64,000 nt of DNA from an uncultured virus (IMG/VR IMGVR_UViG_3300049442_000166) (IMGVR_UViG_3300049442_000166), one strand, 5' to 3'; shown: positions 17,423 to 36,327, numbered from the stretch's first letter. Notes: generated from the sequence alone by a model not told the origin. Translations and numbers: made by a program.

Positions 17423-19817
17423 TGAGTAAATCGATCTGATGTCTGAGTGCGGTCAGCTGGTGCTCGTACCAGCCCTGGTCCACCTCGGCGTCGGCCTTGC
17501 GCGCGTTGGCGAGATTGAGGATGGCCTGCGACAGCTCCTTGATCTCCGAGGCTTTGTCCTTGCCGCGCTTGATCGCCAGCTCGACCTGCTCGTGCTGCTG
17601 GCGGATATCGAGTTCCTTGTTGCGCAGGCCTGCCATCTGGCCGGCGATGTCGACCTGCTCCTTCTGCAGCTGCAGGTTCGCCGCCGCCTGCACCAGCTCG
17701 GCATTGGGTGGCGCCTGGGCGGCGATCAGCTTGTCGACCTGCTGAATGGCTGCGGCCTGCAGCGCCCTCAGGCGGATCTCGCGCCCGTCGAAGAACGGGT
17801 CAGACGCGAACTGCAAGAGGAAATTAGCCTGCGCCATCTGCTGGGTGTCGGTGACCATGTCCGGATCGCTGACGGGTTCCGCGCCAGAACCCCGCAGATA
17901 GTCTGATCTCTGTATCTGAAAGTATTCTGATCCGATACGAAATCCTGCTTCGTCAGGAAGGTACAGCCGATTGAGCCTAAATAGCTTGTCGAAGTCCTGT
18001 CGTAAACTCCTGTGTATACGTTTGAATATGGCATTGAATACCTTCAGTCCCTGCTGGATAACCGCTAGGCCGAGGATGCCTGGGACGTTCGCACCGGGCA
18101 GCTGGCCCTGCAGAACTTCCCTGATGCTACCTACATCTTTGGCTGCTTCCACTAAGAACTGCAGCAGCTGGAACAGCACCGGGTTGGGGCCCGGCATCTC
18201 AAGCGGTACTAAGTTTTCCCGCAGCGTGCGGCCCTGCGTGGTGACCACCTTGTATTCGCCGGTCATGAACCGCACAGAACCGGCGTTGATCGACACGCCG
18301 CCACCGATGAAGCCACCGCCCGCGATCTGCAGGTGACCGGCGTCGAACATCTGGTTGATGGTGGTGTTGACCGCCGCGTTGAGCGGATACATCAGGCTGC
18401 CGAAGCCCAGGTCGTATGACCCGCCGTCGGGGTTCGGGATGAAGCCGTACTTGGTGAAGTAGTCGATCTGACGGATCTCAGAGACCTCGCCTTCTTCGGT
18501 GGCGTCGATGCAGTCCTGGTCGAAGCCCACCGTGATGCGGGCCAGTTTGCCGCTGTCCTTGGCGAACGTGACGATGACCGGTTCGTCGTAACCGTCGTCG
18601 TCGAGATCGTAGCGACGGTGCTGTTCGCAGAAGGTGACCGGCGCCTGCTCGTCCTCGGAGGTGTCGGCGTTGCGGCCATAGCCCTCGTCGCCGTAGTCGA
18701 GCCACAGGCCGGAGCGGATGTTGCTCTCGATCTCCCACGGGTAGAAGTCGATCAGCTCCGTCTTGCGCGGGGCGGCATCAAAGCTCTTGGCCTTGTAGTT
18801 CACGCACAGGCGCAGGGCCGAGACGATCTCGCTGACGTTCCGCCTTTGCTTCGGGTCGAAGTAGTTCTTCCTGAACATCGTGCCGGCGATCGCCACGGTG
18901 ATCAGCAGCCGATCGGTCTGCTCCTCCCACTCCGGCATCTCGGTGAGCAGCTGCCAGGACATATGCCGGCCGATGCGGTCAGCGCGGGTCTGTTTGGACC
19001 CTGGCGGCACGATCCACAGTGCCTTGCCACCGGGACCGATCGCCTGCCCGCCTGGGCCTTGTTGTGGACCCTGTCCGCCCTGGCCGGGTTGTGGTGGCAT
19101 TGGGGGTGCCCCTGGCGGTGCCCCTGGAGGGGGTCCGGCCATGCCGCCAGGGGCTGCGCCCCCAGGTGGCCCGAGTGAGGGTGGGCCGCCGGGTCCGGGT
19201 TGTCCGGGTGGTCCGCCCGGCATCATGCCGGGCTGCGGTGGGGGTGCCATCAGCGGCACGCCGCGGTCGTCGCCGACCACCTTGCCTTTGACGACGTTGC
19301 TGCCCTGCACGATCGCCGGATACGCCCTGGCGTTGAACTGCAGCGCGGCGACGGTGATCAGTGGGAAGCAGACGTTGGAGGCGTTCGGCCAGGGATAGGT
19401 CTTCGGCTCGACGACCTGCAGCGCGAAGGCCATCCACTCGCCGTACCTCTGTTTCCAATCCGCCCGCGTCTCCTCATCGAGTTCGTATTCCCGCTTCGCT
19501 TGGTCGGCGAGGCGTTGGCGCTCGCCGTCCTCGATCTCGTCGGCAATATTCTTGCGCACGATCCACCTAGCGAACCGTCGCACATGCTGAGGTTGCAACA
19601 GCGGCCGGCGGTCGGCTTGGTCGGTCTTGGGGTCGGCGAGGGACTGGTCGGGCGCTGGTGGGCGGAGCGGCAGGATGTCAGCGGATTTTAGCGGCGCCTC
19701 AGGCTCATCCGGCGGCGGCCCCTGCATAGTCTGGCCATCGTCAGGCGGCGGCGGTTGCTGCGCGTCCTGATCTGGCGGTAGTGGTCCCGTCGGAATGGCG
19801 CTGAGCGCGGCACTCAT
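17241..19817 (-). CDS. Portal protein
   Basis: KTYPWPNASNV..PLI..AA.QF.ARAY, GTMFRKNYFD; follows terL; C-terminal coiled coil. Confidence 0.85.
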   Translation of the reverse strand: MSAALSAIPTGPLPPDQDAQQPPPPDDGQTMQGPPPDEPEAPLKSADILPLRPPAPDQSLADPKTDQADRRPLLQPQHVRRFARWIVRKNIADEIEDGERQRLADQAKREYELDEETRADWKQRYGEWMAFALQVVEPKTYPWPNASNVCFPLITVAALQFNARAYPAIVQGSNVVKGKVVGDDRGVPLMAPPPQPGMMPGGPPGQPGPGGPPSLGPPGGAAPGGMAGPPPGAPPGAPPMPPQPGQGGQGPQQGPGGQAIGPGGKALWIVPPGSKQTRADRIGRHMSWQLLTEMPEWEEQTDRLLITVAIAGTMFRKNYFDPKQRRNVSEIVSALRLCVNYKAKSFDAAPRKTELIDFYPWEIESNIRSGLWLDYGDEGYGRNADTSEDEQAPVTFCEQHRRYDLDDDGYDEPVIVTFAKDSGKLARITVGFDQDCIDATEEGEVSEIRQIDYFTKYGFIPNPDGGSYDLGFGSLMYPLNAAVNTTINQMFDAGHLQIAGGGFIGGGVSINAGSVRFMTGEYKVVTTQGRTLRENLVPLEMPGPNPVLFQLLQFLVEAAKDVGSIREVLQGQLPGANVPGILGLAVIQQGLKVFNAIFKRIHRSLRQDFDKLFRLNRLYLPDEAGFRIGSEYFQIQRSDYLRGSGAEPVSDPDMVTDTQQMAQANFLLQFASDPFFDGREIRLRALQAAAIQQVDKLIAAQAPPNAELVQAAANLQLQKEQVDIAGQMAGLRNKELDIRQQHEQVELAIKRGKDKASEIKELSQAILNLANARKADAEVDQGWYEHQLTALRHQIDLLNVVTDTGPAGEGGGSSGGGGGAAPPGLAGSIAGGLQSMAAPPGNGAGAGMAGGLPGQPPA

Positions 19818-19850
19818 GGCTATATGTAGAGGCGCGCGAGCGGCCGAAAG

Positions 19851-20105
19851 TCAACCGGTGGTCGTTCCCCGTTCGGTCCAGCTCCCGCACCAATAATCGG
19901 CGCGCACCACCGGGAAGGTGGAGAAGGGGCGCAGTTCCATGGATGTTCCCAGCTTCGATGGCATGGGGATGAGGAAGGCGGTCGGGGGATTGCGTCGGCA
20001 GTTGAGGTCGCCCGCGGGATCTTTCCAGCTGTAGCGGCAGGTCGCGCAAGCTTGGTCCAGCATGCGAGCGACCACGTCGCGGGGAACGATTAAGGTGGAA
20101 GACAT
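19851..20105 (-). CDS. Small Cys-rich hypothetical protein
   Basis: CATCRY...CRRNPP...FPVV..DYWCG. Confidence 0.6.
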   Translation of the reverse strand: MSSTLIVPRDVVARMLDQACATCRYSWKDPAGDLNCRRNPPTAFLIPMPSKLGTSMELRPFSTFPVVRADYWCGSWTERGTTTG

Positions 20106-20158
20106 GGAGGGCAGTCTATACCGGAGGTAGCATCCGGCATCTACCTAGACCGCCCTCC
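20106..20158 (-). ncRNA. Structured element 1 (outer stem plus a-b-a'-b' core)
   Basis: ggagggcagtcta/tagaccgccctcc; taccgga/tccggca; ggtag/ctacc. Confidence 0.7.
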
Positions 20159-20615
20159 CGCTCTACGACGTCGGCACACTCGCCCGCATCGGCTACGCTC
20201 TGAAGGCTCGGCACTCTCTCGCTACCCGGCTCGCTCGGCTATCATGGCACGCTCGCGGTTGATCGGCTCGCTCACGGGCTTCGGCACTCTCTCGCTGATC
20301 GGCTCGCTCTCTCTATGCGGCACTCTCGCGGATAGCGGCTCGCTCCTGGGGCTCGGCACTCTCGCTCGTAGCGGCTCCGCTCCTGCTCTACGGCACTCTC
20401 CTGAACTTCGGCTCGCTCGCTGGGTTCGGCACTCTCGCAGGTTTCGGCTCGCTCAACGGGTTCGGCACACTCCGAGACCTAGGCTCGCTCCCGGCAATCG
20501 GCACTCTCTGACCATTCGGCTCAGCGGGGATGCGGCACCGACGTCAGCAATCGGTGGCTGACCCGCACCCCCACCCGCTCCAGTTCGAAGGCACTCTCCC
20601 GCAGCTCGGCTGCTC
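20159..20615 (-). repeat. TIGR-like dual-repeat guide array 1 (11 units, including embedded element 2 at 20522-20575)
   Basis: Plus strand alternates CGGCACTCTC and CGGCTCGCTC with variable 8-nt spacers, 36-nt period. Confidence 0.9.
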
Positions 20616-22128
20616 AATAACCAGTGGTCTTTGAGCGGGTACGATCCTGCACCAGCCTGGAATTAAGTTCAATCATGTCGTTATCGATCTGGTCACCGCG
20701 CCATTGCATCGAGGGGCCGAACAAGCGGGTGGCGGTGTACTGGAGCGCGTCGGCCGGGTGTGAATGCAGGTTCTTCTCGGGCTTGTCAGCCCAGCGCTCG
20801 GTGCCGGCGATCTGGATCCGCCGGTAGTGATACCCACCCTGCAGCGCCCGCCGCAGCCGGCCGCACCTGGGATGGAGGTTGAACGCCGGCCGTCCATCAT
20901 CATCAAACTGGCGGAGCTGCTTGCGGATGCACTCCTGGCGGATCTGCGGGGACTGCAGGCCGGGCTCGATCATGATGCCCTTGGTGTGTAGGATATCGAA
21001 ACAAGTCCGCTCATCAGTCTCGGCGCGGCTGTTGCCAGCCGGGTCACCGACGTCGATGAACTCGGTGTCGGGGAAATGCTGGCTGGAGTGGCTCAGCACC
21101 TGATCGCTGAAGCGGTCGACGCCCATCGTATCGGCGCACAGCTCGTCGACGATCTTCCATTGGCCCGTCGCGGCCAGCTGGCTGAAGATGCAGCTGGGCG
21201 TCAGGCCGAAGTCCCACCCGCGGTGCACCGGCAAGCGCGGGTCGGTGCGGGGTGCACGCTTCTCGTCGGCGCCGCCAGGGCAGTGGACGTTGTCATGATA
21301 TTCAGGGAAGACCGGGCGACCCTCGGTGACGAAGCCATATTCACCGCGACAATATACTTTCACCCATTCATCAGTTTTTCCGATGGCCAGCCGCTGCCAG
21401 TAGCCGGGCGACTGGTTCTTGGCGTTCTCCGCGCTGGCCGACAGGCCGGATGGCTGCTTGAATATCCGACAGTATTTTGCAACGGTCATGCCGGGCATGA
21501 ACGCGGCGAGACCTTCGACCGCCTCGGTGTGGTCCATCTTCTCGAAGAACCGGTACCATGCGCTATCGGCATCGGGCGGGTTGGTGTCGAGGATGATGCC
21601 GGCCCAGGTAGCACCACCGCCGTCTCGCTTGGCCGGGTAGCGATCGACGCGGCCCTGCAGGGCGTCGATGATCGTCCAGGGTACCTCGCGCGCCTCGTTC
21701 ACCCAGGCGCCTGTGAGGTCGAGTGACAGCAGGTTCCGAACGTGGTCTGGCCGGTCGAGCGCGCGGAAGAGCAACTCGATTTCGGCACACTTCTTATCGC
21801 CGTCAGCAATGAGTTTGTTCAGCACATACTCGTGCTCGGTCGCCCGCCATTGCCCCATCATAGGGTACGGAAACCATTGGTGCACCGTTCTGATTGTCGT
21901 GTCGTTGAGCTGGCGATAGGTGTTCCTGATCACCGCCCAACGGCTGCGCCGGATGCCATCGAGGCCGGGCTTCTGCTTCAGGCCACGCTGGACGATGTCC
22001 CATAGGCAGCCGCTGCTCTTGCCGCTGCCGAACGGCCCCATCAACCCCCTGATGAACGCGTCATCATTGAGGAAGGCGTGGATCGTCGGGACATCGCCGG
22101 TGTTGTAATCGAGCGTGTGTTTGACCAT
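20614..22128 (-). CDS. terL: Terminase large subunit
   Basis: Walker A GPFGSGKS, Walker B AWVNE, DTNPP, RGWDFG, HPADALQY. Confidence 0.95.
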   Translation of the reverse strand: MVKHTLDYNTGDVPTIHAFLNDDAFIRGLMGPFGSGKSSGCLWDIVQRGLKQKPGLDGIRRSRWAVIRNTYRQLNDTTIRTVHQWFPYPMMGQWRATEHEYVLNKLIADGDKKCAEIELLFRALDRPDHVRNLLSLDLTGAWVNEAREVPWTIIDALQGRVDRYPAKRDGGGATWAGIILDTNPPDADSAWYRFFEKMDHTEAVEGLAAFMPGMTVAKYCRIFKQPSGLSASAENAKNQSPGYWQRLAIGKTDEWVKVYCRGEYGFVTEGRPVFPEYHDNVHCPGGADEKRAPRTDPRLPVHRGWDFGLTPSCIFSQLAATGQWKIVDELCADTMGVDRFSDQVLSHSSQHFPDTEFIDVGDPAGNSRAETDERTCFDILHTKGIMIEPGLQSPQIRQECIRKQLRQFDDDGRPAFNLHPRCGRLRRALQGGYHYRRIQIAGTERWADKPEKNLHSHPADALQYTATRLFGPSMQWRGDQIDNDMIELNSRLVQDRTRSKTTGY

Positions 22129-22133
22129 GGAAT

Positions 22134-22196
22134 GGGAGGAAAGCGCATCGGCGACCTGACTGACAAGGTCACCGGTCAGTCATGCGCTCTCCTCCC
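22134..22196 (-). ncRNA. Structured element 3
   Basis: gggaggaaagcgcat/atgcgctctcctccc; cggcgacct/aggtcaccg; gactgac/gtcagtc. Confidence 0.75.
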
Positions 22197-22772
22197 CGCT
22201 CCCGTACCCCGGCACTCTCGAACCACTCGGCTCGCTCAGCGTGTACGGCACTCTCGTGGCGCCCGGCTCGCTCGCCTAATCCGGCACTCTCACTTGTCCA
22301 GGCTCGCTCTCTACACACGGCACACTCATCTACACCGGCTCACTCGTCGCTCTTGGCACTCTCAGCTGGCCCGGCTCGCTCACTACTGGCGGCACTCTCT
22401 CGGATAGCGGCTCGCTCACTTGGTTCGGCACTCTCCATCGTAGCGGCTCGCTCCTGTTCTACGGCACTCTCAGCTGCGACGGCTCGCTCCTGATGTTCGG
22501 CACTCTCTCGCAGCACGGCTCGCTCTACCTTATCGGCGCTCTCCATTATCACGGCTCGCTCCAAGGGCGCGGCACTCTCACCAACGCCGGCTCGCTCCTG
22601 TGGCTCGGCACTCTCTTCATGGTCGGCTCGCTCTTCCTGCTCGGCACCCTCGTGCCATTCGGCTCGCTCGCGCTTCTCGGCACTCTCAGGGATACCGGCT
22701 CGCTCCTACGCCACGGCATACTCAACGTAGTCGGCTCGCTCGGCTATCACGGCACACTCCTAGCCCGCGGCT
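22197..22772 (-). repeat. TIGR-like array 2 (16 units)
   Basis: Exactly 16 x 36 nt; same dual repeats, variable spacers. Confidence 0.92.
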
Positions 22773-23004
22773 AGTCGGTGACCTTGTTCGCATCTTGGAG
22801 CGGCCCGGGCAACTCGGCTTCATGCTCCTGCGTCCACCGCTTCGGCGGCTTCCCGCCGTGGTTTAGATAAATATAACGCTCCCTGGTCACCGGAATGCCT
22901 TGCTTCAGCATATAGTCCAGGGTGATGTCGTTGTGGCGATGGGCCTCCAGCTCCGCCGGGCTCACCACCCCCTCCTCACCCTCACTCCTCGGCGTCGTCG
23001 CCAT
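22771..23004 (-). CDS. Hypothetical protein
   Basis: 77 aa; its TAG stop overlaps the first repeat of array 2. Confidence 0.5.
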   Translation of the reverse strand: MATTPRSEGEEGVVSPAELEAHRHNDITLDYMLKQGIPVTRERYIYLNHGGKPPKRWTQEHEAELPGPLQDANKVTD

Positions 23005-25030
23005 AGTCCTGTCCTCCAGCCCAACTGGGTGGTTTTAGCCCACCCGCATGAGACACGATAGCCTCTCGTCTCTCATCAGGGGTTTTACCACGATGCGCCC
23101 CCTTGTTGCGCCACATATCTGCAACTTCACCGACGAATGTCTTGTTGCGCTTCTGTTCCGGTGAGAACAGGCCGCGCACGCCCTCCCAGGTCACGCTCTG
23201 CAGCTCCCGGGGCATGATGCCGAGATCGGCAGCCGCCCGCCGGTAGGCCTCGGCATACAGCCCATACATCCCCTTGTTGCCCAGCGTGGCGCTGTCCCCG
23301 GCCTGGGGCAGCCGCGGCGCGTTGGGATCCCCCTTCGGCTGCTTCGGGTTGGTGCCCAGGCCGTGGGCGACCTCCATGGCGCCGGCCCCGAGCGGCCGGA
23401 GCAGCGCCGCGGCAATCGCGTGGGTGTCGATCGTGACATCGTGGCCATGCCCTGGCGCGATGATGTTGTTGTAAAAGTTACGCACCTTGTGGGCGCCGCC
23501 CATCAGCCGGGACACGGTCGGCAGGTCGGCGTTCTGCAGCGCCGCCATCGCTTTGCCGATCTCGCTGAAGCTGCCCCAGGTCACGTCCCGTGACCGCGAC
23601 GCCTCCTCAAGCTGACCCTTGCGCTTGCCTTTGGTGTAGTACTTCGCCGGGATCATCGAGGTGCCGGCCTCGCCGCCCTCCGGGGTAATGATCTTGTAGC
23701 TGCGCGGGTTGTGCGCCTCGTCGTGCCAGCGGGCGAACACGGCGCGCTCGAAGGGGTCGGTGAGCGCTGACATCGGCGTCTCGCGGAACTTCTGCTGCAG
23801 CCCCCTCAGCCTCTCGATCATCTCCGGCTCGCCCTTCCAGGGCTTCCCCGTCGCCTGTGCCTTGGCCTGCTGCTTCGCCGCCTCCGTCTCCAGCTGGGTG
23901 ATGTACTTCGCAGAGTAGTCCTGCATCTTGTCCGTCATCGTCCAGTTGGCACCGAGCTTGTGTGCCTCGAACGCCTTCTTGGCGAGATGGACGTTCTGAT
24001 ACCAATCCTTCTGCGGGCTGAGTGCGGCCAGCACAGCGGCGGCGACGTGCGGCTGGACGCCGTATTCCTTGGCCAGACTGTGGGCGATGCGGTTGGCGCC
24101 GCTGTACCACTGCTTGGCGCGCTCGACGATGCCGGGGCCGATCGGGCCCTTCTCGTCGTTCATCTTGTTGTACAACCACTTGAGGTTGTCCTTGGCGTGG
24201 TTGATGAACGCCTCGTTGATCTTGGTCGGGTCATCGGTGCGCAAGTGCTCGAACCCCGGGTAATGCTCCTTGATGATCTTGGCGTTCTTGGCCTTCTGGT
24301 CGGTCGCCCGGTTCATGCTGTCGTAGTCGCTCGACAGGTCGGCGGTGCCGTGCGCGTCGATGCCGGCTGCACGCTGCGCCGGCTCGGACGGGATGCGGGT
24401 GGAGATGCGCAGATCGCTGCGGCTGCGCTCCGGCTCCTGATCGGGCGATGTCGGCGCCTCGGGTTCGGCTCCTGGCGCAGGTGCAGCACCCTGAGCACCG
24501 CCGGCCTGGGCCAGCGCCTCGCTGCCGTAGGTGGGGCCGCCCATCGTCTGGCCCGCCAGTCGCTGCGCCACCGCACCACGTTGGCGGACCAGCCCGCCGC
24601 TGGTGGGATCCTGCTGGAACTGGGTGACGTCAGCCGGACCACCTGGGGGCGCGCCAGGAGGCGCCATGGGCGCTGCGGCTGGCACCGGCACCGACATAGC
24701 GGCGGCACTGGGCCCCGGCGCCGCGGCACGCAGCTGGGCAACCCCTGAGGACGGCGCTATGCCCATCGGCGGGGGCGACGGCGGCATCTCCATAGCCGGT
24801 GGCGTCATTACACCGGGCGTCGGCGATGGCTGCGCCAGCTGCGCCAGCGACAGCGCGGCACGCGGCGGCTGGATCGGCGCCAACCCTGGCGCGCGCGGCG
24901 TCTGCCACAGCTGGTCTGTGAGCTTCGCCAGCGGGTCAAGCTGCTTCTGATATTTCGCCAACGGATTGGTTTCGAGATCCCCACCGGGATCGATCTGTGG
25001 GTAGGGGATACCCCCGAGGCGACCGCTCAT
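22982..25030 (-). CDS. Protein with Pro-rich N-terminus and a putative HhH-GPD/glycosylase-like DNA-acting domain
   Basis: WY..A...AAVLAALSPQ..W..N, KVRNFYNNI, VTIDTHA, Y..AY..AA...G..P.ELQ..TW. Confidence 0.5.
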   Translation of the reverse strand: MSGRLGGIPYPQIDPGGDLETNPLAKYQKQLDPLAKLTDQLWQTPRAPGLAPIQPPRAALSLAQLAQPSPTPGVMTPPAMEMPPSPPPMGIAPSSGVAQLRAAAPGPSAAAMSVPVPAAAPMAPPGAPPGGPADVTQFQQDPTSGGLVRQRGAVAQRLAGQTMGGPTYGSEALAQAGGAQGAAPAPGAEPEAPTSPDQEPERSRSDLRISTRIPSEPAQRAAGIDAHGTADLSSDYDSMNRATDQKAKNAKIIKEHYPGFEHLRTDDPTKINEAFINHAKDNLKWLYNKMNDEKGPIGPGIVERAKQWYSGANRIAHSLAKEYGVQPHVAAAVLAALSPQKDWYQNVHLAKKAFEAHKLGANWTMTDKMQDYSAKYITQLETEAAKQQAKAQATGKPWKGEPEMIERLRGLQQKFRETPMSALTDPFERAVFARWHDEAHNPRSYKIITPEGGEAGTSMIPAKYYTKGKRKGQLEEASRSRDVTWGSFSEIGKAMAALQNADLPTVSRLMGGAHKVRNFYNNIIAPGHGHDVTIDTHAIAAALLRPLGAGAMEVAHGLGTNPKQPKGDPNAPRLPQAGDSATLGNKGMYGLYAEAYRRAAADLGIMPRELQSVTWEGVRGLFSPEQKRNKTFVGEVADMWRNKGAHRGKTPDERREAIVSHAGGLKPPSWAGGQDYGDDAEE

Positions 25031-26802
25031 GGCGTGCCTTTCTTGTGGTCGCGCAGTGCGTCAGCACCGGCATCGATCATCGCCGGCATACCGTTACGCT
25101 TGACGATGTTGATCGTGCGCGGATCGAACACGACGTAGTTGTGGCTGCCATGGCCGGAGGCTCGACTGCCAGCATCGAGGTAGCGGATGCCCGGGATACC
25201 GGCGTCGAGTAGCCGCCGCGCCGCCGCTTCATCACCCCCTCTACCACCAGCCATGTGCGTGTAAATGTGTTTGCCCTGATCCGTGTCGCCATAGCCGTGA
25301 TCGAGCAGCCTGTCCCGCACATACGAATGATGCTGACCAAGCGGCTTATCCCAGTCGAGCATGTGGTCCGGATGAATGTGCAGCTCCGACTGATACAGTT
25401 GGCCGGTGCTTTGGGCGAAGTCATCCGGCTTCAGTTTACCTGCTGCCGCGTGCACACCGAGATAGAACTGGCCACGCCGCTGGTCCGCCTCCCACGCGTC
25501 CGTTCTCCCGAACCCATGCCGATGCGGCGAATATGACATCTGCGCCGCCGCGTCAGCGTACTCATCCTCCACCTTCTCGATCGCCTGCCGTGCCGTCATC
25601 CCCTGGTCCTGCATGAATTCGGCGACCTGATGCACCGCCATCTTGTGCGGATCGACCCCGCTCCACACCGGCACCGCACCCTGGTGGGTCACACCACCAG
25701 ACAGGTCATCGCGGTAGCTCTTCGCGATGCTTTCATTGCCAGCCTGATAAATGCCCTTGCCGTAGGCCTGGGCGCCCTCGCCCGTGCCGAGCTTGCTGAG
25801 GTTGAACTCACCGAGTGGGTTGGCGCGCGTCGGCGCGAACTCGTGTGGCGTGCCGTGGTGCACCGTCAGCGGTTGCGCCATGCGGATCAGCTGGCCTGAG
25901 CCATACGCCTCTGGCCCGGGTGCGGCGGGCACGTTTCCGCGGCTCTCGACGTGCGCCAGGGCGGCGTGCTGCGCCGCGGTGCCCGCGTCATAGTCAGCGA
26001 CATGGGGGCCGTCAGTAGGCTGATACGAGCCCGCCTGGGGGTCGTGTGCCATGAACACGACATCGGGCGTGCCACCCTTGAATTCCCTGAACGTGTCACG
26101 CATCCAGCCCTTCGGCTTGTGCTCCTCGCTCCAGGGGATGCGCGCGACGGCACGGAAGCCGTTCTGTGCGTAAATATGTGGCAGCACCGTATCGAACGCA
26201 TCAAGCCGCCGACCGCCGTTCTGTTTGGCAAGGTCGAGCATCGATCTGGTGACGTTACGGTATGGCGCCTTCGGATGTTTGAACACCGATACGATGTCAT
26301 CGCCCTTCAGCGCGAAGCCGGCATCACCCTCCTTGGTCGCGAACATCCGCATCCCGCGGTAGTCCTCGGGAGGATATTGGGTGACCGCGGCGCCGGCCGG
26401 GTGAGCCTTCTTGGCGACACCGATTACATGGTGAAAGGCATCGGCACCCTCTGGGTGCAGCTCATGATACGTCGGAGCGTCGGCGTTGGAGTAGCCCTGC
26501 TTCGGCGACCAGACGGTCTTGGTGACGCCAGAGAGACCTGTGCCTAGACCCAGTGCCGAAGATGCTTCAGGGCTTCTGCCTTCGTAATTCCCCTCGACTG
26601 CACCAGCTCGTCCGCCAGCCTGTCCAACAGCTTGTCCGCCTCCCGCTGGATCTCCGGGGTTGAGCGGTAACTGTGCTGGGGCTGGTGTTGCGACTGGTCC
26701 TGGGGTGGTTGTTTGGCCATATCGATCTCCGAGCGATCCTAGCGCATTGGTGCTAGGCGTCGCCAGCGGCGGGTAGGGGATGCTGCCAAGCGTCGCGGAC
26801 AT
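25027..26802 (-). CDS. Polyvalent-type protein: GNAT-like plus ADP-ribosyltransferase-like domains
   Basis: DIVSVF...GGRRLDAFDT.LP.IY...GF; VHHGT...GTGEGAQAYG.GIY...GIPGIRY...NYVVFDP; start re-called at MSATLG. Confidence 0.6.
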   Translation of the reverse strand: MSATLGSIPYPPLATPSTNALGSLGDRYGQTTTPGPVATPAPAQLPLNPGDPAGGGQAVGQAGGRAGAVEGNYEGRSPEASSALGLGTGLSGVTKTVWSPKQGYSNADAPTYHELHPEGADAFHHVIGVAKKAHPAGAAVTQYPPEDYRGMRMFATKEGDAGFALKGDDIVSVFKHPKAPYRNVTRSMLDLAKQNGGRRLDAFDTVLPHIYAQNGFRAVARIPWSEEHKPKGWMRDTFREFKGGTPDVVFMAHDPQAGSYQPTDGPHVADYDAGTAAQHAALAHVESRGNVPAAPGPEAYGSGQLIRMAQPLTVHHGTPHEFAPTRANPLGEFNLSKLGTGEGAQAYGKGIYQAGNESIAKSYRDDLSGGVTHQGAVPVWSGVDPHKMAVHQVAEFMQDQGMTARQAIEKVEDEYADAAAQMSYSPHRHGFGRTDAWEADQRRGQFYLGVHAAAGKLKPDDFAQSTGQLYQSELHIHPDHMLDWDKPLGQHHSYVRDRLLDHGYGDTDQGKHIYTHMAGGRGGDEAAARRLLDAGIPGIRYLDAGSRASGHGSHNYVVFDPRTINIVKRNGMPAMIDAGADALRDHKKGTP

Positions 26803-26805
26803 GAT

Positions 26806-26858
26806 GGTGGGAAGCATACACCACGACGGGCTCGTGGCGACCCGTTATGCTCCCCACC
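26806..26858 (-). ncRNA. Structured element 4
   Basis: ggtgggaagcata/tatgctccccacc; caccacga/tcgtggcg; cgggc/acccg. Confidence 0.7.
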
Positions 26859-27254
26859 CGCTCGGCCACGTCGGTACTCTCAATCGAGACGGCTCGCTCG
26901 ACTGTATCGGCACTCTCGCATCGGTCGGCTCGCTCACTTTGGTCGGCACTCTCTGCTGCTCAGGCTCGCTCAGCCTTGTCGGCACACTCTTCGAATACGG
27001 CTCGCTCGTTCAGATCGGCACTCTCGCACATCACGGCTCGCTCTCTCGTATCGGCACTCTCGTATACGACGGCTCGCTCAGGTGTAACGGCACTCTCAAC
27101 ATCCCAGGCTCGCTCCCTCATCACGGCTCTCTCAGTGAAGACGGCTCGCTCGTTCTTTACGGCACCCTCAGATCGAGCGGCTCGCTCCGCTATGTCGGCA
27201 CTCTCTCACAGCACGGCTCGCTCTGGACCGACGGCACACTCACGATAGACGGCC
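26859..27254 (-). repeat. TIGR-like array 3 (11 units), downstream of the tas gene
   Basis: 11 x 36 nt dual-repeat units. Confidence 0.92.
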
Positions 27255-27321
27255 CACCTGCGGGCGTGCGTGGTGTTTGCCTCGTTTAAGACCCAGGCCC
27301 ATTAGCTCCGGTCCCCGCAGG

Positions 27322-28512
27322 TCACCGCGGCTTCCGCGGCCGCGATGTCGGACCACGTTGCGCCTTGGCCTTCGCCGCGGCAAACGCAGGTATCAGCTCG
27401 ATGTTGGGGATCTCCAGCCGGTGCACATGTCCTGGGATATTCTCGATGACGTACGGATGCGGCGGCAACTCTTTGTAATGATCCCAATACATCACCTCGT
27501 GGAGATGCGCGAGGAAAAGCTTCACTGCGCGACGTTGCGCTCGCAGATGCAGACGGGCCGGCGGCAACATGCCTTGCTGATACCACTTATACGCGTCGGT
27601 CTTCGGATCAAACCGCTTCAGCTCCAGGCTGAGCTTCGCCTGATCGGCGTAGAGCTGACGGCTGTTGCGCTCGGTCTCCCAGTCCTTCCGCGCCTTGTAC
27701 AGCTTGCCGTAGACGTCGTCCGGCCTGTTAGATACTTTGACAAAGCTCTCGCCGATCAGAAAGCACAGCCGCTTCAGGCTGGCGTTCCACGGGCGCTTCT
27801 GGCCCTTGCCCCAGATCGAGGTCGGATCCAGCCCGGCGAAGCGCCAGATATGCCCCACGGTCGGTGCGCGTTGGATGTCGATGTTGGCCAGCAGCCCGGC
27901 GGCGATCACCGGTCCGATGCCCTTGATGCTGCGCGCCCAGATGCCGGCCTCATCGGACAGGCTGTAGATGTCGAGTGTGCCGCGGATCTGCTTTTCGAGG
28001 GTCTCCTCCTGCACGAACAACCACTCCAGAACCTCGTGTGGCTCGGGGACTGGATCTGCCACTGGCTGCGGCTGCGCCTCCTCATCGTCCTCGTCGCCCT
28101 CGTGAGCGTCGTCGGTGCGCTGCTGCTTCGGCTCCGCTAAAGTCCTCACTTGGTGTTTGGTGCGGATGCGGTTCTCCTGCATAGAATAATACGCATCGAC
28201 GAGGAACCGCGCCTCGATCTTGCCGAGGGTGCGCGACGCCTGCTTCAGATCCTTGGTTAACTTCTGGATCGGTGTCAGCAGGCTGGGATCGGCGGTAGAT
28301 GTCAGCAGCTGGTGCAAGGCATCGAGCCGCTGGAACAGGCTGGCGATCAGGTCACCGTCCGGCGGTTGGTTGCGGCCATGGCGCAGCAGGCTGAGCGCGT
28401 CACCCACAAGCTCGACGGGTGTCATCGCCAGGAAGTCTTCGGGGCCCATCGGCTCGGTCGTGATCGGCGGTGGCATGTCCTTGGCTGGGCGGTATGTTTC
28501 TGGCCGTTTCAT
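27322..28512 (-). CDS. Tas-like Nop/IS110-related RNA-binding protein with no nuclease domain (TasA-like)
   Basis: Coiled coil (YY.MQENRIR), SIKGIGPVIAAGLL, IWRFAGLDP, RPWNASLKRLC, YGKLY..RK, LHLRAQRRAVKLFL; no DEDD RuvC or HNH motif; flanked by arrays; AAGGAG RBS before MKRPETY. Confidence 0.85.
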   Translation of the reverse strand: MKRPETYRPAKDMPPPITTEPMGPEDFLAMTPVELVGDALSLLRHGRNQPPDGDLIASLFQRLDALHQLLTSTADPSLLTPIQKLTKDLKQASRTLGKIEARFLVDAYYSMQENRIRTKHQVRTLAEPKQQRTDDAHEGDEDDEEAQPQPVADPVPEPHEVLEWLFVQEETLEKQIRGTLDIYSLSDEAGIWARSIKGIGPVIAAGLLANIDIQRAPTVGHIWRFAGLDPTSIWGKGQKRPWNASLKRLCFLIGESFVKVSNRPDDVYGKLYKARKDWETERNSRQLYADQAKLSLELKRFDPKTDAYKWYQQGMLPPARLHLRAQRRAVKLFLAHLHEVMYWDHYKELPPHPYVIENIPGHVHRLEIPNIELIPAFAAAKAKAQRGPTSRPRKPR

Positions 28513-28534
28513 GGGTTCTCCTTTGGGGTGGTTC

Positions 28535-28786
28535 CACTCAATGGTTGCGGCACTCTCGGGGAACACGGTTCACTCTGCAGTTGCGGCACTCTCGTTGCTC
28601 ACGGTTCGCTCAATACCCTCGGCACACTCTCCTCATCCGGCTCGCTCTAGCTTCTCGGTACTCTCAAGGACTGCGGCTCGCTCCTATCTATCGGCACGCT
28701 CCATGGAAACGGCTCGCTCATGTCACACGGCACTCTCTTTCCAAGCGGCTCGCTCACCAAGCCCGGCACTCTCCGAAGCTACGGCT
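28535..28786 (-). repeat. TIGR-like array 4 (7 units), directly upstream of the tas gene
   Basis: 7 x 36 nt; repeats degenerate toward the gene. Confidence 0.9.
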
Positions 28787-28888
28787 TGGTCTTTGCTACC
28801 GCGGCCGGCGCAGCAAAGTCAAGATGGTTAATCAGGAGACGGTACTGGCCGGTAGAAGGATGCAATGAAGGCAGGAAAGGAAGGCAGG

Positions 28889-29038
28889 TCAGCGGTGCAG
28901 CACGGCCTGGAAGATCACCCAGGCCATTGCCAGGGAGCCGGCGCTGGCCAGGACGTAGGCGTAGGCCCGGTCGTAGCGCCGCCGTGGTCTGGGTGCTTGG
29001 TTGTAGCGGACGGTAGAGCGGCGACGGCGCAGCCGCAT
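28889..29038 (-). CDS. Small basic membrane peptide (49 aa, not in the ORF track)
   Basis: MRLRRRRSTVRY...AYVLASAGSLAMAWVIFQAVLHR*; starts 5 nt after element 5. Confidence 0.4.
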   Translation of the reverse strand: MRLRRRRSTVRYNQAPRPRRRYDRAYAYVLASAGSLAMAWVIFQAVLHR

Positions 29039-29043
29039 CAGCT

Positions 29044-29098
29044 CAGCGGGGATATGGTACCGGCGTTAGCAAACCGGCAGCTGACCCATACCCCCGCC
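29044..29098 (-). ncRNA. Structured element 5
   Basis: ggggatatgg/ccatacccc; taccgg/ccggca; gttagc/gctgac. Confidence 0.7.
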
Positions 29099-29602
29099 CG
29101 CTCTTGAGTGTCGGCACTCTCTCTTGACGCGGCTCGCTCGGCATCCGTGGCACTCTCACACATGGCGGCTCGCTCAGCTCTCCCGGCACTCTCGGTTGGT
29201 GTGGCTCGCTCATTGGCTACGGCACTCTCGCCCACGCGGCTCGCTCGTCGATGTCGGCACTCTCGCGGTTTATGGCTCGCTCGGCCAGCTCGGCACACTC
29301 TCGGACTTCGGCTCGCTCAGCCGGTTCGGCACTCTCCAGGGACACGGCTCGCTCTCAAGGATCGGCACTCTCGCTGGATGCGGCTGCGCTCTTATCTATC
29401 GGCACCCTCATTTCATTGCGGCTGCGCTCATGTTGCTCGGCACCCTCGCAACTGGCGGCTCGCTCTGTCTGCTTGGCACTCTCATAGATCTCGGCTCGCT
29501 CGCGCCAGTCGGCACACTCAACCTTCCCGGCTCGCTCACCTTCCTGGCACTCTCGTGGAGGCGGCTCGCTCATCCATTTCGGCACTCTCGGACGGCCCGG
29601 CT
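29099..29602 (-). repeat. TIGR-like array 5 (14 units)
   Basis: Dual repeats; a few 7- or 9-nt spacers and CGGCTGCGCTC repeat variants. Confidence 0.9.
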
Positions 29603-29735
29603 AACGCGCCGATGCTATCGCCGTCCCACCGGGTGCGCCATGCCGCTGCCATCATGGAACGCCGTGCCACCACAGTTGTGGCCGGCGAGCTGGTTCCTGG
29701 CGGCCTTCTTGATCGCCCGCAACAGGCTGCCGGGC

Positions 29736-29984
29736 TTAGACTGGCGCGCTGCCGGCTGGCGGGCTTGCTGGCCCCGCTGGCCCTGGCCCACCGCCGCCGA
29801 GCCCGGCGAGTAGCTGCCCGAGCCCACCGCCATTGCCTTGGGCACCATCCCCTGATTGATCACCGCCATTGGGTGGCTCCTCCATCGGCATCTGTTGCCG
29901 CCGCTTCTTGTGCTTGCGGTGCGCGTGCGGCCCCTCGGTGAACGCGGTCGGTGCGTCGGGGAAGGCTGTCGGGTCGTCGCTCAT
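29736..29984 (-). CDS. Gly/Pro-rich hypothetical protein
   Basis: GAGGAG RBS before MSDDPTAF. Confidence 0.4.
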   Translation of the reverse strand: MSDDPTAFPDAPTAFTEGPHAHRKHKKRRQQMPMEEPPNGGDQSGDGAQGNGGGLGQLLAGLGGGGPGPAGPASPPAGSAPV

Positions 29985-29994
29985 GTCTCGCTCC

Positions 29995-30420
29995 TCACGC
30001 CTCGCGCTGCGGCTCGTGCTCCCCCTCGGCCTGTGGCTCCTGCCACGCCGTCGGCACCTCCAGCGGATCTGGGCTGATCTCAGCCTCTGCCAGCGCCCGC
30101 TCGTCGGCGCTTGGCTCCTCAGCGACAACCGGTGCGCCCTCGACCATGGTCAGCCTGGGCACCGTCTCGGCGTCCTCCTGGAGCAGCCCATAGTCGGAGA
30201 TCAGACACGAGGTGATGCGGCTGTCGAGCGCGCCACCATCGTGCGCCAGGAGCAGTCGCGTCTTCACCTGCTCGGCGAGGTTGGGCGCATCGGGATCCCC
30301 AGCCAGTGAGATCGTGGCACCGAAGTAGCCGCCGTCGAGCATGAGCATCTGCACCAACGGGACCGGGACGATGTCTTGCGGCTCTAGCTCTTCGAGGCTG
30401 TCGGTGTAGGTGTCTGACAT
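29995..30420 (-). CDS. Acidic hypothetical protein, paralogous to the N-terminus of 10862-11815
   Basis: G.Y..ATI and L.SR..S.L.S..GL.Q..A shared. Confidence 0.55.
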   Translation of the reverse strand: MSDTYTDSLEELEPQDIVPVPLVQMLMLDGGYFGATISLAGDPDAPNLAEQVKTRLLLAHDGGALDSRITSCLISDYGLLQEDAETVPRLTMVEGAPVVAEEPSADERALAEAEISPDPLEVPTAWQEPQAEGEHEPQREA

Positions 30421-30584
30421 GGTTCTTCCCCCTCATCGTCCGGTGGCGGCCAGTCGATCTCGCCCTTGCCCTTACATAGCCAGCAATCCTCACGTTGGAG
30501 GCAGGCTGAACTGACGAGGCGCACTATGACATACTGCCGGCCATTGCAATTAGGGCAGATGCAGCGGAAGAAGCCGACGGTCAT
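30384..30584 (-). CDS. Small zinc-finger protein (DnaJ-type CxxCxG)
   Basis: CPNCNG...CWLCKGKG. Confidence 0.5.
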   Translation of the reverse strand: MTVGFFRCICPNCNGRQYVIVRLVSSACLQREDCWLCKGKGEIDWPPPDDEGEEPCQTPTPTASKS

Positions 30585-30881
30585 CGCCGGCTCTTGGCGC
30601 CTATGTTCGCCGGCTGGCGATCAGGCTGCACGCCCTCCTGGGTGGCGGCGTAGTTTGGGGCGTAGCCGGCCTGGAACGCCGGGTGGTCAGCACTGCTGCC
30701 CTTGATCTTGGGCTCGCTATTCTTCACCTCGATCAGGGCTGCCCAGGCCTCGTGCGGCAGATGCTCCGGCCATCCCGCCTGTTGGGCGTCCCACAGCGTG
30801 TGGGTGTCCGTTTCGATGTGAGGATAACCTAGCGCGTACTTCGGGGCGGGGGTGGCGGAGAGCAGCGCCTCGCTCCCCGCC

Positions 30882-31334
30882 CGCTCCGCGATCCCGGTAC
30901 TCTCTGGCTCTGCGGCTCGCTTCGGTGTCTCGGCACTCTCAAGTCTGTCGGCTCGCTCACTGTGCCCGGCACTCTCATGTGTAGCGGCCCGCTCAGTCGC
31001 CTCGGCACTCTCTGGCTCGTTGGCTCGCTCAGCGGTATCGGCACTCTCACAAGTTTCGGCTCGCTCGGACAGCTCGGCACTCTCTCGATCCACGGCTCGC
31101 TCATCTGTATCGGTACGCTCGCGAGTGTCGGCTCGCTCAGGTTTCTCGGCACTCTCTTCTGCCACGGCTGCGCTCATCTGTGTCGGCACCCTCACTGCGC
31201 TCGGCTCGCTCGGTTATCACGGCACTCTCTCTCGAAGCGGCTACAACGGGGACGATGCACTGGCGTCAGCAAACCAGTGGCTGACCATCGTCCCCGCCCG
31301 CTCGGCGGCCCCGGCACTCTTGCACATCACGGCC
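30882..31334 (-). repeat. TIGR-like array 6 (11 units; element 7 embedded at 31243-31298, short element 6 at 30843-30881)
   Basis: Dual repeats with 36-nt period; element 7 has perfect ggggacgatg/catcgtcccc, cactgg/ccagtg, gtcagc/gctgac. Confidence 0.9.
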
Positions 31335-31439
31335 GTATTCATTGTCCTACAGGATCAACCAGAAGAACAGTCCCCATAGCGGTAGCGACAGCGTGACGCC
31401 GACCGCAATCCCCTTGGCCACAGCCAGGTGATCATCCCC

Positions 31440-31628
31440 TCACCGAGTTCCTGCTCGTTTGATCCACCGGTCACACCACCCTCCCGGTTTGATATCTCCT
31501 GCAACTAGGTGGCACGCATTAGGCGCGCGCCAATGGACGCACTTGTCACACGTCTCAGACTGTAGCTCCGCCTTTGGCGTGTAGCGCGTGTCGCGTTTCG
31601 TCAGCTGCCTGATCGGCCGCTGCGCCAC
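31440..31628 (-). CDS. HiPIP-like small Fe-S protein
   Basis: CDKCVHW...CHLVAGDIKPGGWCDRW four-Cys pattern. Confidence 0.6.
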   Translation of the reverse strand: MAQRPIRQLTKRDTRYTPKAELQSETCDKCVHWRAPNACHLVAGDIKPGGWCDRWIKRAGTR

Positions 31629-31877
31629 TCAGCTCGGAATATGATGCGGGCCGTGATCACTGTGCGCGGTCGCCGGCAGCTTGCCACCACCACGCGATAT
31701 GTGCGGCGGCCCGGCGCGGTTGCTGTCATCCAGTGGCGTGTGGCTCATGCCGGCGTCCGGGTGGGCAATGCCACCGTTCACCTTGGCGAGGCTGTCACAG
31801 CCGCAATCCGAAGCCTTCATCGTACCATCTCCCATCGCTAGGTTCTTATGCTGTCTGATGCTGGTGTCGTAGGCCAT
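31629..31877 (-). CDS. Hypothetical protein
   Basis: 82 aa, tightly packed in the operon. Confidence 0.45.
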   Translation of the reverse strand: MAYDTSIRQHKNLAMGDGTMKASDCGCDSLAKVNGGIAHPDAGMSHTPLDDSNRAGPPHISRGGGKLPATAHSDHGPHHIPS

Positions 31878-32021
31878 TCACTTGCCCTTCCGCTTAGGCT
31901 TACGCCTGGATTTGTCTAGTGCAATTGCCACAGCTTGCTTCTGCGGAAATTTACCAGTAGACACCAACTCACTGACGTTCTTGCTTATCGTCTTCTGGCT
32001 CGATCCGCTCTTTAATGGCAT
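31878..32021 (-). CDS. Small basic phage protein
   Basis: [20 protein letters not shown]...QKQAVAIAL, a common phage peptide near packaging genes. Confidence 0.65.
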
Positions 32022-35571: not shown

Positions 35572-36327
35572 ATGGTTCGTCAAGAAGACTGGCGCCGCGA
35601 CCACCCCGCCACCAACCCGGCCTTCGAGGCCTTGGCCGAGCTGAGCTTGGTGCTCGTGCATCTCTCGCCGCGTGACCTCACGTTCGCCGAGAGCCTCGCC
35701 GGGCAGTTCCAGGCGCGCGGCAGCCTCTCTGAGAAGCAGCTGTTCTGGGTGGGCGAGCTGACCCGGCGCGCCCAGGCTGTCGCCGCTCCGCGCGCGCAAG
35801 CGACAATGTCGACACCCGCCCCGACCCCAGCTGCTCCCGTGGCCAAGGAATTCCTGCAGATCCTGGCGCTGTTCGCCAGCGCCGGCAGCCGTGCGGCGAT
35901 CGTGTTCAACACCGACACCGTCAACCAGATCCCCCAGGGCACCGAGTTCCGCCTGAGCGTGGCCGGCGAGCGCAGCCAGCAGCCGGGAAGCATCAACGTC
36001 ACCGACGCGGCTTCGGGATTTGCCGACCGGACGTGGTACGGCCGCATCACCACCAAGGCGGTGTGGCAGCCGAGCCGCAAGCTCGACACGGCCACCATCG
36101 CGGCGGTCGAGGCGGCGCTGACCACGTTCAATGCCGATCCGGCAGCTGCTGCGGCTCACTACGGCCACGGCACCAACCACTGCTGCTTCTGCCGCCGCGA
36201 GCTGACCGACGAGCGCTCGGTGAGCGTGGGCTATGGACCTCAGTGCGCAGATAAGTTTGGATTGCCTTGGGGCGCCGTCCCTGGTCCCAAGCCCGAGAAC
36301 CTTCTGGTGTGTGATGTCCCTTTCTAA
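35572..36327 (+). CDS. DUF6011-like zinc-finger protein
   Basis: CCFCRRELTDERSVSVGYGPQCA; LSEKQ motif. Confidence 0.7.
   Translation: MVRQEDWRRDHPATNPAFEALAELSLVLVHLSPRDLTFAESLAGQFQARGSLSEKQLFWVGELTRRAQAVAAPRAQATMSTPAPTPAAPVAKEFLQILALFASAGSRAAIVFNTDTVNQIPQGTEFRLSVAGERSQQPGSINVTDAASGFADRTWYGRITTKAVWQPSRKLDTATIAAVEAALTTFNADPAAAAAHYGHGTNHCCFCRRELTDERSVSVGYGPQCADKFGLPWGAVPGPKPENLLVCDVPF

Follow-up and report, generated by a model that had tools for sequence, protein, structure and literature searches.

A conserved three-helix RNA element at the boundaries of TIGR arrays and late genes lacking Shine-Dalgarno sequences in an uncultured tailed phage

TIGR-Tas, an RNA-guided system, was described only recently. 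In published accounts, the dual-repeat form of Tas is reported to rely on a Y/H dyad, and on no metal, to cut within the edge repeat (Xu et al. 2026 preprint, 10.64898/2026.09.09.750476; PMC13421893), and intragenic tigRNAs, which lie in the tas coding sequence, have been proposed to link guide maturation with the translation of Tas (10.64898/2026.09.09.750476). Here, we consider a stretch of 64,000 nucleotides from an uncultured virus (IMG/VR IMGVR_UViG_3300049442_000166), hereafter the window, with positions counted from its first letter. Its late operon carries eight array segments of the TIGR dual-repeat type together with one tas gene, and by the criteria of Faure et al. (2025, PMC12045711) the sequence identifies the locus as a dual-repeat TIGR-Tas system. 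At the boundaries of these arrays stands a conserved RNA hairpin with three helices, and the genes that begin at its foot lack a Shine-Dalgarno (SD) sequence.

The arrays have a period of 36 nt, in which the loop repeat GAGAGTGCCG and the edge repeat GAGCGAGCCG alternate 18 nt apart with 8-nt spacers between them, and all are oriented in the direction of the genes. Array starts read AGCCG and array ends GAGCG, which are the two halves of the edge repeat; on the minus strand an array thus closes with GAGAGTGCCG, 8 nt and then GAGCG.

The hairpin and its conserved fold

At seven of the eight array ends in the window, GAGCG passes directly into a hairpin, the exception being the array before tas. 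The copies in the window are as follows.

E1, 20106-20158, minus strand: 13-bp stem and 27-nt X/Y core; 60 bits with the covariance model; 0 nt from the stem to ATG 20105 of a gene for a protein of 84 amino acids (aa)
E1a, 20523-20575, minus strand: 57 bits; preceded by a single guide unit after the terL stop and followed by AGCCG of array 1, with no gene
E2, 22134-22196, minus strand: 15-bp outer stem around X7-Y9-N-X'7-Y'9; fold energy -48.1 kcal/mol, z -6.2; followed by ATTCC (22129-22133) and, 5 nt from the stem, the terL ATG 22128
E3, 26806-26858, minus strand: followed by ATC and, 3 nt from the stem, ATG 26802 of the 591-aa gene
E5, 29045-29098, minus strand: 48 bits, outside the training set; followed by GAGCTG and, 6-7 nt from the stem, ATG 29038 of a 49-aa open reading frame (ORF)
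Short copy, 30854-30881, minus strand: 11-bp stem, 6-nt loop, no X/Y core; z -0.8
E6a, 31245-31298, minus strand: 45 bits, outside the training set; followed by the AGCCG that opens array 6b

An earlier note on this DNA had placed a structured element right before SD-less starts, and both reading and folding bear this out, with offsets of 0, 5 and 3 nt for the ATGs at 20105, 22128 and 26802; for the ATG at 29038 it gave 5 nt, which we correct to 6-7 nt, and it lacked E1a, E6a and the short copy. The position of the hairpin is precise: across the 21 distinct full-size copies found among relatives and in the window, pairing begins immediately after GAGCG in 19 and one nucleotide further on in the remaining two. 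Relatives were gathered by a pattern scan of viral contigs, which returned 82 stretches with the same repeats, and by a TerL search, which returned 13 loci (related loci carry L numbers below). Copies were picked by the pairing of the outer stem and the length of the core, with no regard to the pairing of X or Y, and the covariation of X and Y described below is therefore not circular.

The copies share a plan in which GAGCG is followed by an outer stem of 13-15 bp (19 of 21) that encloses a core of 27 nt (14 of 21), the whole measuring about 53 nt. The core reads X6-Y7-N-X'6-Y'7, such that X pairs with X' and Y with Y' in an interleaved fashion, with linkers of 0, 1 and 0 nt in 15 of the 21 copies. 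In 20 of them the score of the X/Y core was reached by none of 300 core shuffles. Within the window, the fold energies of E1, E2, E3 and E5 range from -35 to -48 kcal/mol (z -3.2 to -6.2, equalled by none of 200 shuffles), and z-scores of -2.8 to -6.2 hold for six of the seven copies. A gapless alignment of 14 copies has 99.1% of its 350 cells paired, against 31-45% in slid controls, and compensatory changes occur in 23 of the 25 pairs (outer stem 12/12, X 5/6, Y 6/7), a level reached in none of 500 shuffles. RNAalifold independently recovers the outer and Y helices, with compensatory changes in 18 of their 19 pairs. It is thus the structure, and not the sequence, that is conserved across the copies.

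Pairs of the G-U type are present, and at one Y pair they make up 9 of 14. The covariance model gives 45-60 bits on the minus strand and at most 16 on the plus strand, an advantage of 30-45 bits, and together with the G-U pairs this shows it to be a gene-strand RNA. All five window matches with E below 1e-7 lie at array boundaries and nothing elsewhere in the window falls below E 0.3; the model (R1) misses E2, which has a larger core and rests on folding and the X/Y parse. In the related loci, it gives 37 matches spread over 13 contigs. The hairpin occurs only at gene/array boundaries, at times before another array: in E1a, E6a and L083:393-447 an edge repeat is split as GAGCG-hairpin-AGCCG, and at L018:764-816 the hairpin sits after the stop codon of a gene and before the AGCCG that opens an array.

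As for the geometry of the core, the interleaved covarying helices of an H-type pseudoknot are present, and the loop length that would let both coexist is not. From general pseudoknot geometry and the 0/1/0 linkers, we infer that X and Y cannot form together. The two conformers differ by a mean of 1.8 kcal/mol, and each offers a long continuous 3' strand: 20 bp (13 + 7) with a 6-nt bulge in one, and 19 bp with a 7-nt bulge in the other. A search of 19500-32000 on both strands against Rfam, with E up to 1, gave no match to the element and returned only sR14 (E 0.21). The element is thus a conserved, strand-specific, three-helix RNA module that is new relative to Rfam.

None of the 21 copies is followed by a U-tract (at most four T in any 8 nt after the stem), and a consensus scan of the region found 13 terminator-like sites and a single promoter-like site, none of them at an element. 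A second viral scan with a degenerate pattern returned 50 stretches and no further element, and a scan of metagenomes for the pattern of array ends gave 120, with nothing new in the five metagenome loci with arrays in L096-L230. A genome scan gave 15 single matches, with arrays in two loci only, in metagenome-assembled genomes of Verrucomicrobia and Holophagales; in metagenome and genome loci, four or more repeats were taken as a real array. The arrays of another lineage (L046, L059) have a different trailer, which on inspection was judged unrelated.

Start codons at the foot of the hairpin

The genes behind the full-size hairpins and the tas gene are listed here.

84-aa gene, 19851-20105, minus strand: ATG 20105 adjoins the E1 stem
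terL, 20614..22128, minus strand: 504 aa; phrog_2 match at 1e-23; start ATG 22128
591-aa gene, 25027-26802, minus strand: start ATG 26802
tas, 27322..28512, minus strand: 396 aa, Nop/IS110-type RNA-binding domain; AAGGAG at 28518-28523
49-aa ORF, 28889-29038, minus strand: start ATG 29038, downstream of E5

The duplexes that their upstream regions can form with the anti-SD sequence have energies of -3.0 (84-aa gene), +1.9 (terL), -2.8 (591-aa gene) and -1.5 kcal/mol (49-aa ORF). As the earlier note held, tas is the array-downstream gene without the element, and its AAGGAG reaches -8.7 kcal/mol. Of the 71 first starts in the window, 58% have energies of -4 or better, versus 30% of random positions, and SD-less genes also occur outside the hairpin context, the portal gene at 19817 (+1.9) being one. 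The region from -15 to -1 is 81-100% paired in the four hairpin-borne genes (probability of being unpaired 0.00-0.19) and 35% paired in tas; the single-stranded complement of the anti-SD, 5-12 nt upstream, that marks an SD-led start is lacking at hairpin-type ends. The called ATGs are the true starts, because the N-termini are conserved in relatives: TerL is conserved from M1 and the 84-aa protein from residue 2 in 7/7 relatives each, and the N-termini of the 591-aa and 49-aa proteins recur.

Across relatives, none of 15 hairpin-type ends before genes has an SD energy of -5 or better, the best being -3.7; two of these 15 start calls, for the ORF after arrays of the 6b type, are doubtful. Start codons lie 0-9 nt from the stem in all hairpin cases, and E1 (-3.0) as well as terL in L089 (-2.4) and L094 (-1.7) agree with the SD-less pattern. 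Of the 34 true array ends without a hairpin, 27 are followed by a gene at no more than 50 nt; an SD is present in 16 of those 27, and in 10/12 where the gene lies at most 15 nt from GAGCG (e.g. ggGAGCGCAC-ATG). The SD at such ends is assembled from the last spacer bases and the terminal GAGCG. The same gene can be compared with and without the hairpin in four families (SD energies in kcal/mol).

49-aa ORF: -1.5 with the hairpin; -6.6 without (L013)
84-aa gene: about -3 with the hairpin; -7.4 without, with a CTG start (L089, L090)
terL: +1.9 to -2.4 with the hairpin; -6.1 in the array-less L090/L091, where it overlaps the upstream gene
591-aa gene: -2.8 with the hairpin; -3.1 without (L047), the exception

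An SD is thus present without the hairpin in three of the four, and at the 49-aa and 84-aa genes the hairpin has been gained or lost among relatives. In L089 (~1845) and L090 (~2857), the 84-aa gene has CTG where others have ATG or GTG, with AGGAGAG upstream (-7.4), and this CTG is probably its start codon.

The arms of the stem were a further part of the earlier account, which pointed to anti-SD-like sequence rich in pyrimidines at the SD position and to GGAGG-like 5' arms; E1-E3 agree, with CCUCC-like 3' arms and GGAGG-like 5' arms, and as a general feature the GGAGG-like 5' arm fails, with GGCCGG, GGCGGG and GGGGTG in its place in relatives. Three other ways of starting such genes were considered, and the first two were dropped. 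An SD placed 5' of the hairpin and bridged to the start by it was set aside as the last spacer bases are varied and not enriched in purines. A promoter inside the hairpin, yielding a leaderless mRNA, was set aside as the consensus scan finds no promoter there; a TA-rich junction (GGTATA) is confined to copies that precede the 84-aa and 591-aa genes and is missing at terL. For termination-reinitiation, ORFs that run up to the ATGs from upstream were sought, and an overlap (TGATG) exists at the 49-aa gene only.

Two side observations touch on these starts. At L094:1040-1190 the guide units upstream of terL are nearly decayed, and neither the hairpin nor the SD-less start of terL has been lost. 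An SD made of spacer and GAGCG often precedes tas itself (L008, L009, L010, L014, L039, L046, L069, L071), and is also seen at L013:+2108 and in L089/L090; judging from these sequences, cleavage of the edge repeat would sever such an SD from its ORF, and Tas could in this way limit its own translation by negative feedback.

The late operon, its arrays and Tas

The source is a tailed phage found in soil; the window has a G+C content of 64%, and the 15 sequencing runs found for the region are of soil or rhizosphere DNA. The late operon occupies the minus strand from about 35475 down to 123 and includes terL, a portal gene (phrog_1216), a major head gene and tail genes. Separately, a replication block on the plus strand encodes a helicase, a primase/polymerase, an exonuclease and two HNH endonucleases. 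TerL is 41% identical to annotated podophage terminases, and its relatives belong to phages that infect mostly Proteobacteria. The 591-aa protein, which the earlier note called an effector, has weak PHROG matches only, to a virion or endolysin-like protein, and that label is unsupported, as no nuclease or Tas-effector family emerged for it in Pfam, PHROGs or a PDB sequence search. The product of the 49-aa ORF has an arginine-rich N-terminus (MRLRRRRSTVRYNQAPRPRRRY) and a hydrophobic tail, and is kept in L013. A motif of about 16 nt, (C)CACAGGAGTATCCC, stands directly before the starts at 35572, 36883, 37841, 48602 and 53710 (plus strand) and 35124 (minus strand), and is a ribosome-binding or regulatory box common to several genes of the window. 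The arrays whose limits bear on the hairpins are given below.

Array 1, 20159..20521, minus strand: 36-nt dual-repeat units
Array 2, 22197..22772, minus strand: begins AGCCG, terminal GAGCG at 22197-22201
Array 3, 26859..27254, minus strand: 36-nt dual-repeat units
Array 4, 28530-28786, minus strand: upstream of tas; degenerate final repeat, no hairpin
Array 5, 29099-29598, minus strand: upstream of E5
Array 6b, 30882-31242, minus strand: upstream of the short hairpin copy
Single guide unit, 31299-31333, minus strand: upstream of E6a

Tas matches PF02371 (8e-6) and phrog_4285 (8e-43) and, in the PDB sequence search, a TasR-like chain (9mty, 6e-9) and TasH (21kl, 4e-5), with a C-terminal region that matches as well; among cultured phages it has no match. 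Some edge repeats measure 11 nt (GAGCGCAGCCG), giving a unit spacing of 37 nt, at ~20381, ~29428, ~29390 and ~31175 (minus strand). In array 3, 27076-27128 (minus strand) is the site of the sub-threshold Rfam match noted above, to the archaeal C/D-box small RNA model sR14, and this weak match fits the box C/D-like nature of TIGR guides. The 67 parsed spacer pairs, in both arrangements, with gaps of 0-4 nt and at most one mismatch, gave no self-target in the window outside the arrays.

Downstream of array 6b lies a conserved ORF (...YALGYPHIE...SSADHPAF) that ends at 30581 and lacks any ATG, GTG or TTG start past the hairpin. The frame of this ORF is open through the hairpin and the whole upstream array (ESAxxxERAxxx) in all five distinct contigs checked (the window, L004, L012, L026 and L049), over 258-732 nt and 10-25 repeats; the background stop rate in this frame is 0.08 per spacer (113/1418). 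These sequences are suggestive of a guide array translated as part of a protein other than Tas.

Possible roles of the element and its relation to known systems

The element marks the boundary between coding RNA and guide RNA and is not primarily a translation signal, since the copies at E1a, E6a, L083:393-447 and L018:764-816 precede no gene. Of the explanations for its role, we favour, tentatively, that of an array-boundary module for processing and stability within one long late transcript. The junction at GAGCG is a predicted site of guide processing because the truncated array ends, with AGCCG at the start and GAGCG at the end, mark it. Tas, in excising 36-nt guides, would also cut the polycistronic mRNA; after the cut, the hairpin would become the extreme 5' end of the downstream mRNA or, for copies in front of an array, the 3' terminus of the RNA upstream, and in either place it could serve as a cap and insulator that shields coding RNA from decay and from the array ribonucleoprotein. 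A module that occupies the place of the SD would bring the start codon to the foot of the stem and leave the gene to start without an SD, probably on processed or further trimmed RNA. Translation may then depend indirectly on guide processing, which is a conjecture; a coupling of this kind is plausible.

Several points weigh against this proposal. If E1a and E6a were cut on both sides, a free hairpin RNA that protects nothing would result. At the last repeat, the stem takes the place of the 3' half (GGNGG where AGCCG would stand), and full edge repeats were required for processing (Faure et al., PMC12045711). A GC-rich stem 0-3 nt before the AUG should block the 30S subunit, such that an additional step of opening or removal would be needed. 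All 21 copies come from one phage clade (13 contigs and the window). Finally, a plain stabiliser leaves the conservation of both X:X' and Y:Y' unexplained, and among the explanations tested none accounts for it.

A dedicated translation-start element, in which the hairpin replaces the SD, initiation needs it to fold, to be opened by Tas seated on the last repeat, or to be removed, and the late genes are gated by the guide system, is an unlikely explanation. In its favour, and most strongly so, the absence of SDs tracks the hairpin (0/15 ends against 10/12 close hairpin-less ones); further, same-gene pairs change their SD status with it in three of four families, starts keep within 0-9 nt of the stem, terL in L094 retains both the hairpin and the SD-less start where the guide units have decayed, and a link between guide maturation and translation has been raised for intragenic guides (Xu et al. 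preprint, 10.64898/2026.09.09.750476). It is countered by the roughly one-fifth of copies that precede an array instead of a gene (E1a, E6a, L083a, L018), by a 5' arm whose SD-like run is not conserved, by the lack of SD enrichment 5' of the hairpin, which leaves a bridged SD of the T4 gene 38 type unsupported, by the 591-aa gene, which has no strong SD even where the hairpin is absent (L047, -3.1), and by the lack of any known mechanism through which a ribosome could start right below a stem worth about -20 kcal/mol. Of what the earlier note claimed, the absence of an SD behind the element is supported; a dedicated translation signal is not supported, as the element also occurs with no gene downstream, and a dependence of terL translation on folding or cleavage is conjectural. 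A bolder version, less probable again, would make the element a two-state RNA device in place of the ribosome-binding site, in which X/Y is the switch and cleavage by Tas yields hairpin-capped, SD-less terminase and virion mRNAs that become translatable only after the guide machinery has acted, so that packaging would be timed to guide maturation.

The remaining explanations invoke factors other than the ribosome. A host RNase site of the phage T7 RNase III type, at which the helix is cut, the array released and a short SD-less leader left behind, would suit a helix of 19-20 bp with a one-sided bulge (about two turns of double-stranded RNA being the criterion) that lies between genes of a phage operon and is conserved in structure and not in sequence; yet Tas reportedly processes dual-repeat arrays, and no extra nuclease is needed for guides; we hold this explanation improbable. 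Slightly more improbable still is a terminator or attenuator that closes each array and leaves the downstream genes to their own promoters or to read-through, which the position and the GC-rich stem recommend, both matching the prediction of Faure et al. (PMC12045711) for TIGR arrays. Against it stand the lack of a T-tract after any of the 21 copies, the absence of the 13 terminator-like sites and the promoter-like site from the elements, the essential late genes 0-9 nt downstream, which leave no room for a promoter, and the two copies that stand before the main body of an array. In Proteobacteria, which the phages with related TerL mostly infect, U-tracts are generally needed for such terminators. 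Least credible, to the point of being very doubtful, is a DNA-level site, folded as a single strand for recombination or array mobility in the manner of integron attC; it would explain the recognition of structure instead of sequence, the siting at the ends of cassette-like arrays that vary between relatives, and the gain and loss of the hairpin at the 49-aa and 84-aa genes, yet the presence of G-U wobbles and the strong asymmetry between strands suit an RNA made from the genes' own strand, and no recombinase is found among the 14 proteins scanned around the arrays.

As a boundary module, the element has parallels in the 5' stabiliser stem-loops of the ompA-leader type and the intergenic RNase III sites of phage T7, which are likewise structure-only hairpins that set RNA ends and stability. 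The genes behind these keep their own SD downstream of the hairpin, and we know of no bistable X/Y core in either. In the hairpin-bridged genes 38 and 25 of phage T4, a single-stranded SD lies 5' of the hairpin; a hairpin between upstream purine-rich sequence and start is common to them and the window, whereas in the window no conserved SD lies 5' of the stem, and the SD-like run is part of the stem itself and varies among copies.

Among TIGR systems, the closest likeness is to the predicted rho-independent terminator of TIGR arrays, a hairpin right after the 3' truncated edge repeat and near tas (Faure et al. 2025, PMC12045711). In contrast to it, the window element has no U-tract and comprises three helices, two of them mutually exclusive and yet both covarying; it is also found at the 5' boundaries of arrays and inside split edge repeats, in mid-operon, and adjoins SD-less starts. 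The intragenic tigRNAs (Xu et al. 2026 preprint, 10.64898/2026.09.09.750476) resemble it in that guide units are merged with the expression signals of protein genes; in the preprint, however, the guides lie inside the tas frame, whereas in the window a dedicated hairpin stands between the arrays and the non-tas genes downstream of them (terL and virion genes). The passages of the TIGR-Tas literature covered here describe neither this three-helix element nor SD-less starts at array ends. With guide arrays interleaved with essential late genes, the making of guides would necessarily cut the mRNA of the terminase, portal-region and virion genes, and the junction module, together with the systematic loss of ribosome-binding sites, points to an evolved solution for expressing genes behind guide arrays. 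The element thereby offers a testable handle on the links between guide maturation, mRNA stability and translation, and adds to the known repertoire a compact, structure-only RNA part whose mutually exclusive, co-conserved helices place it outside any current RNA family.

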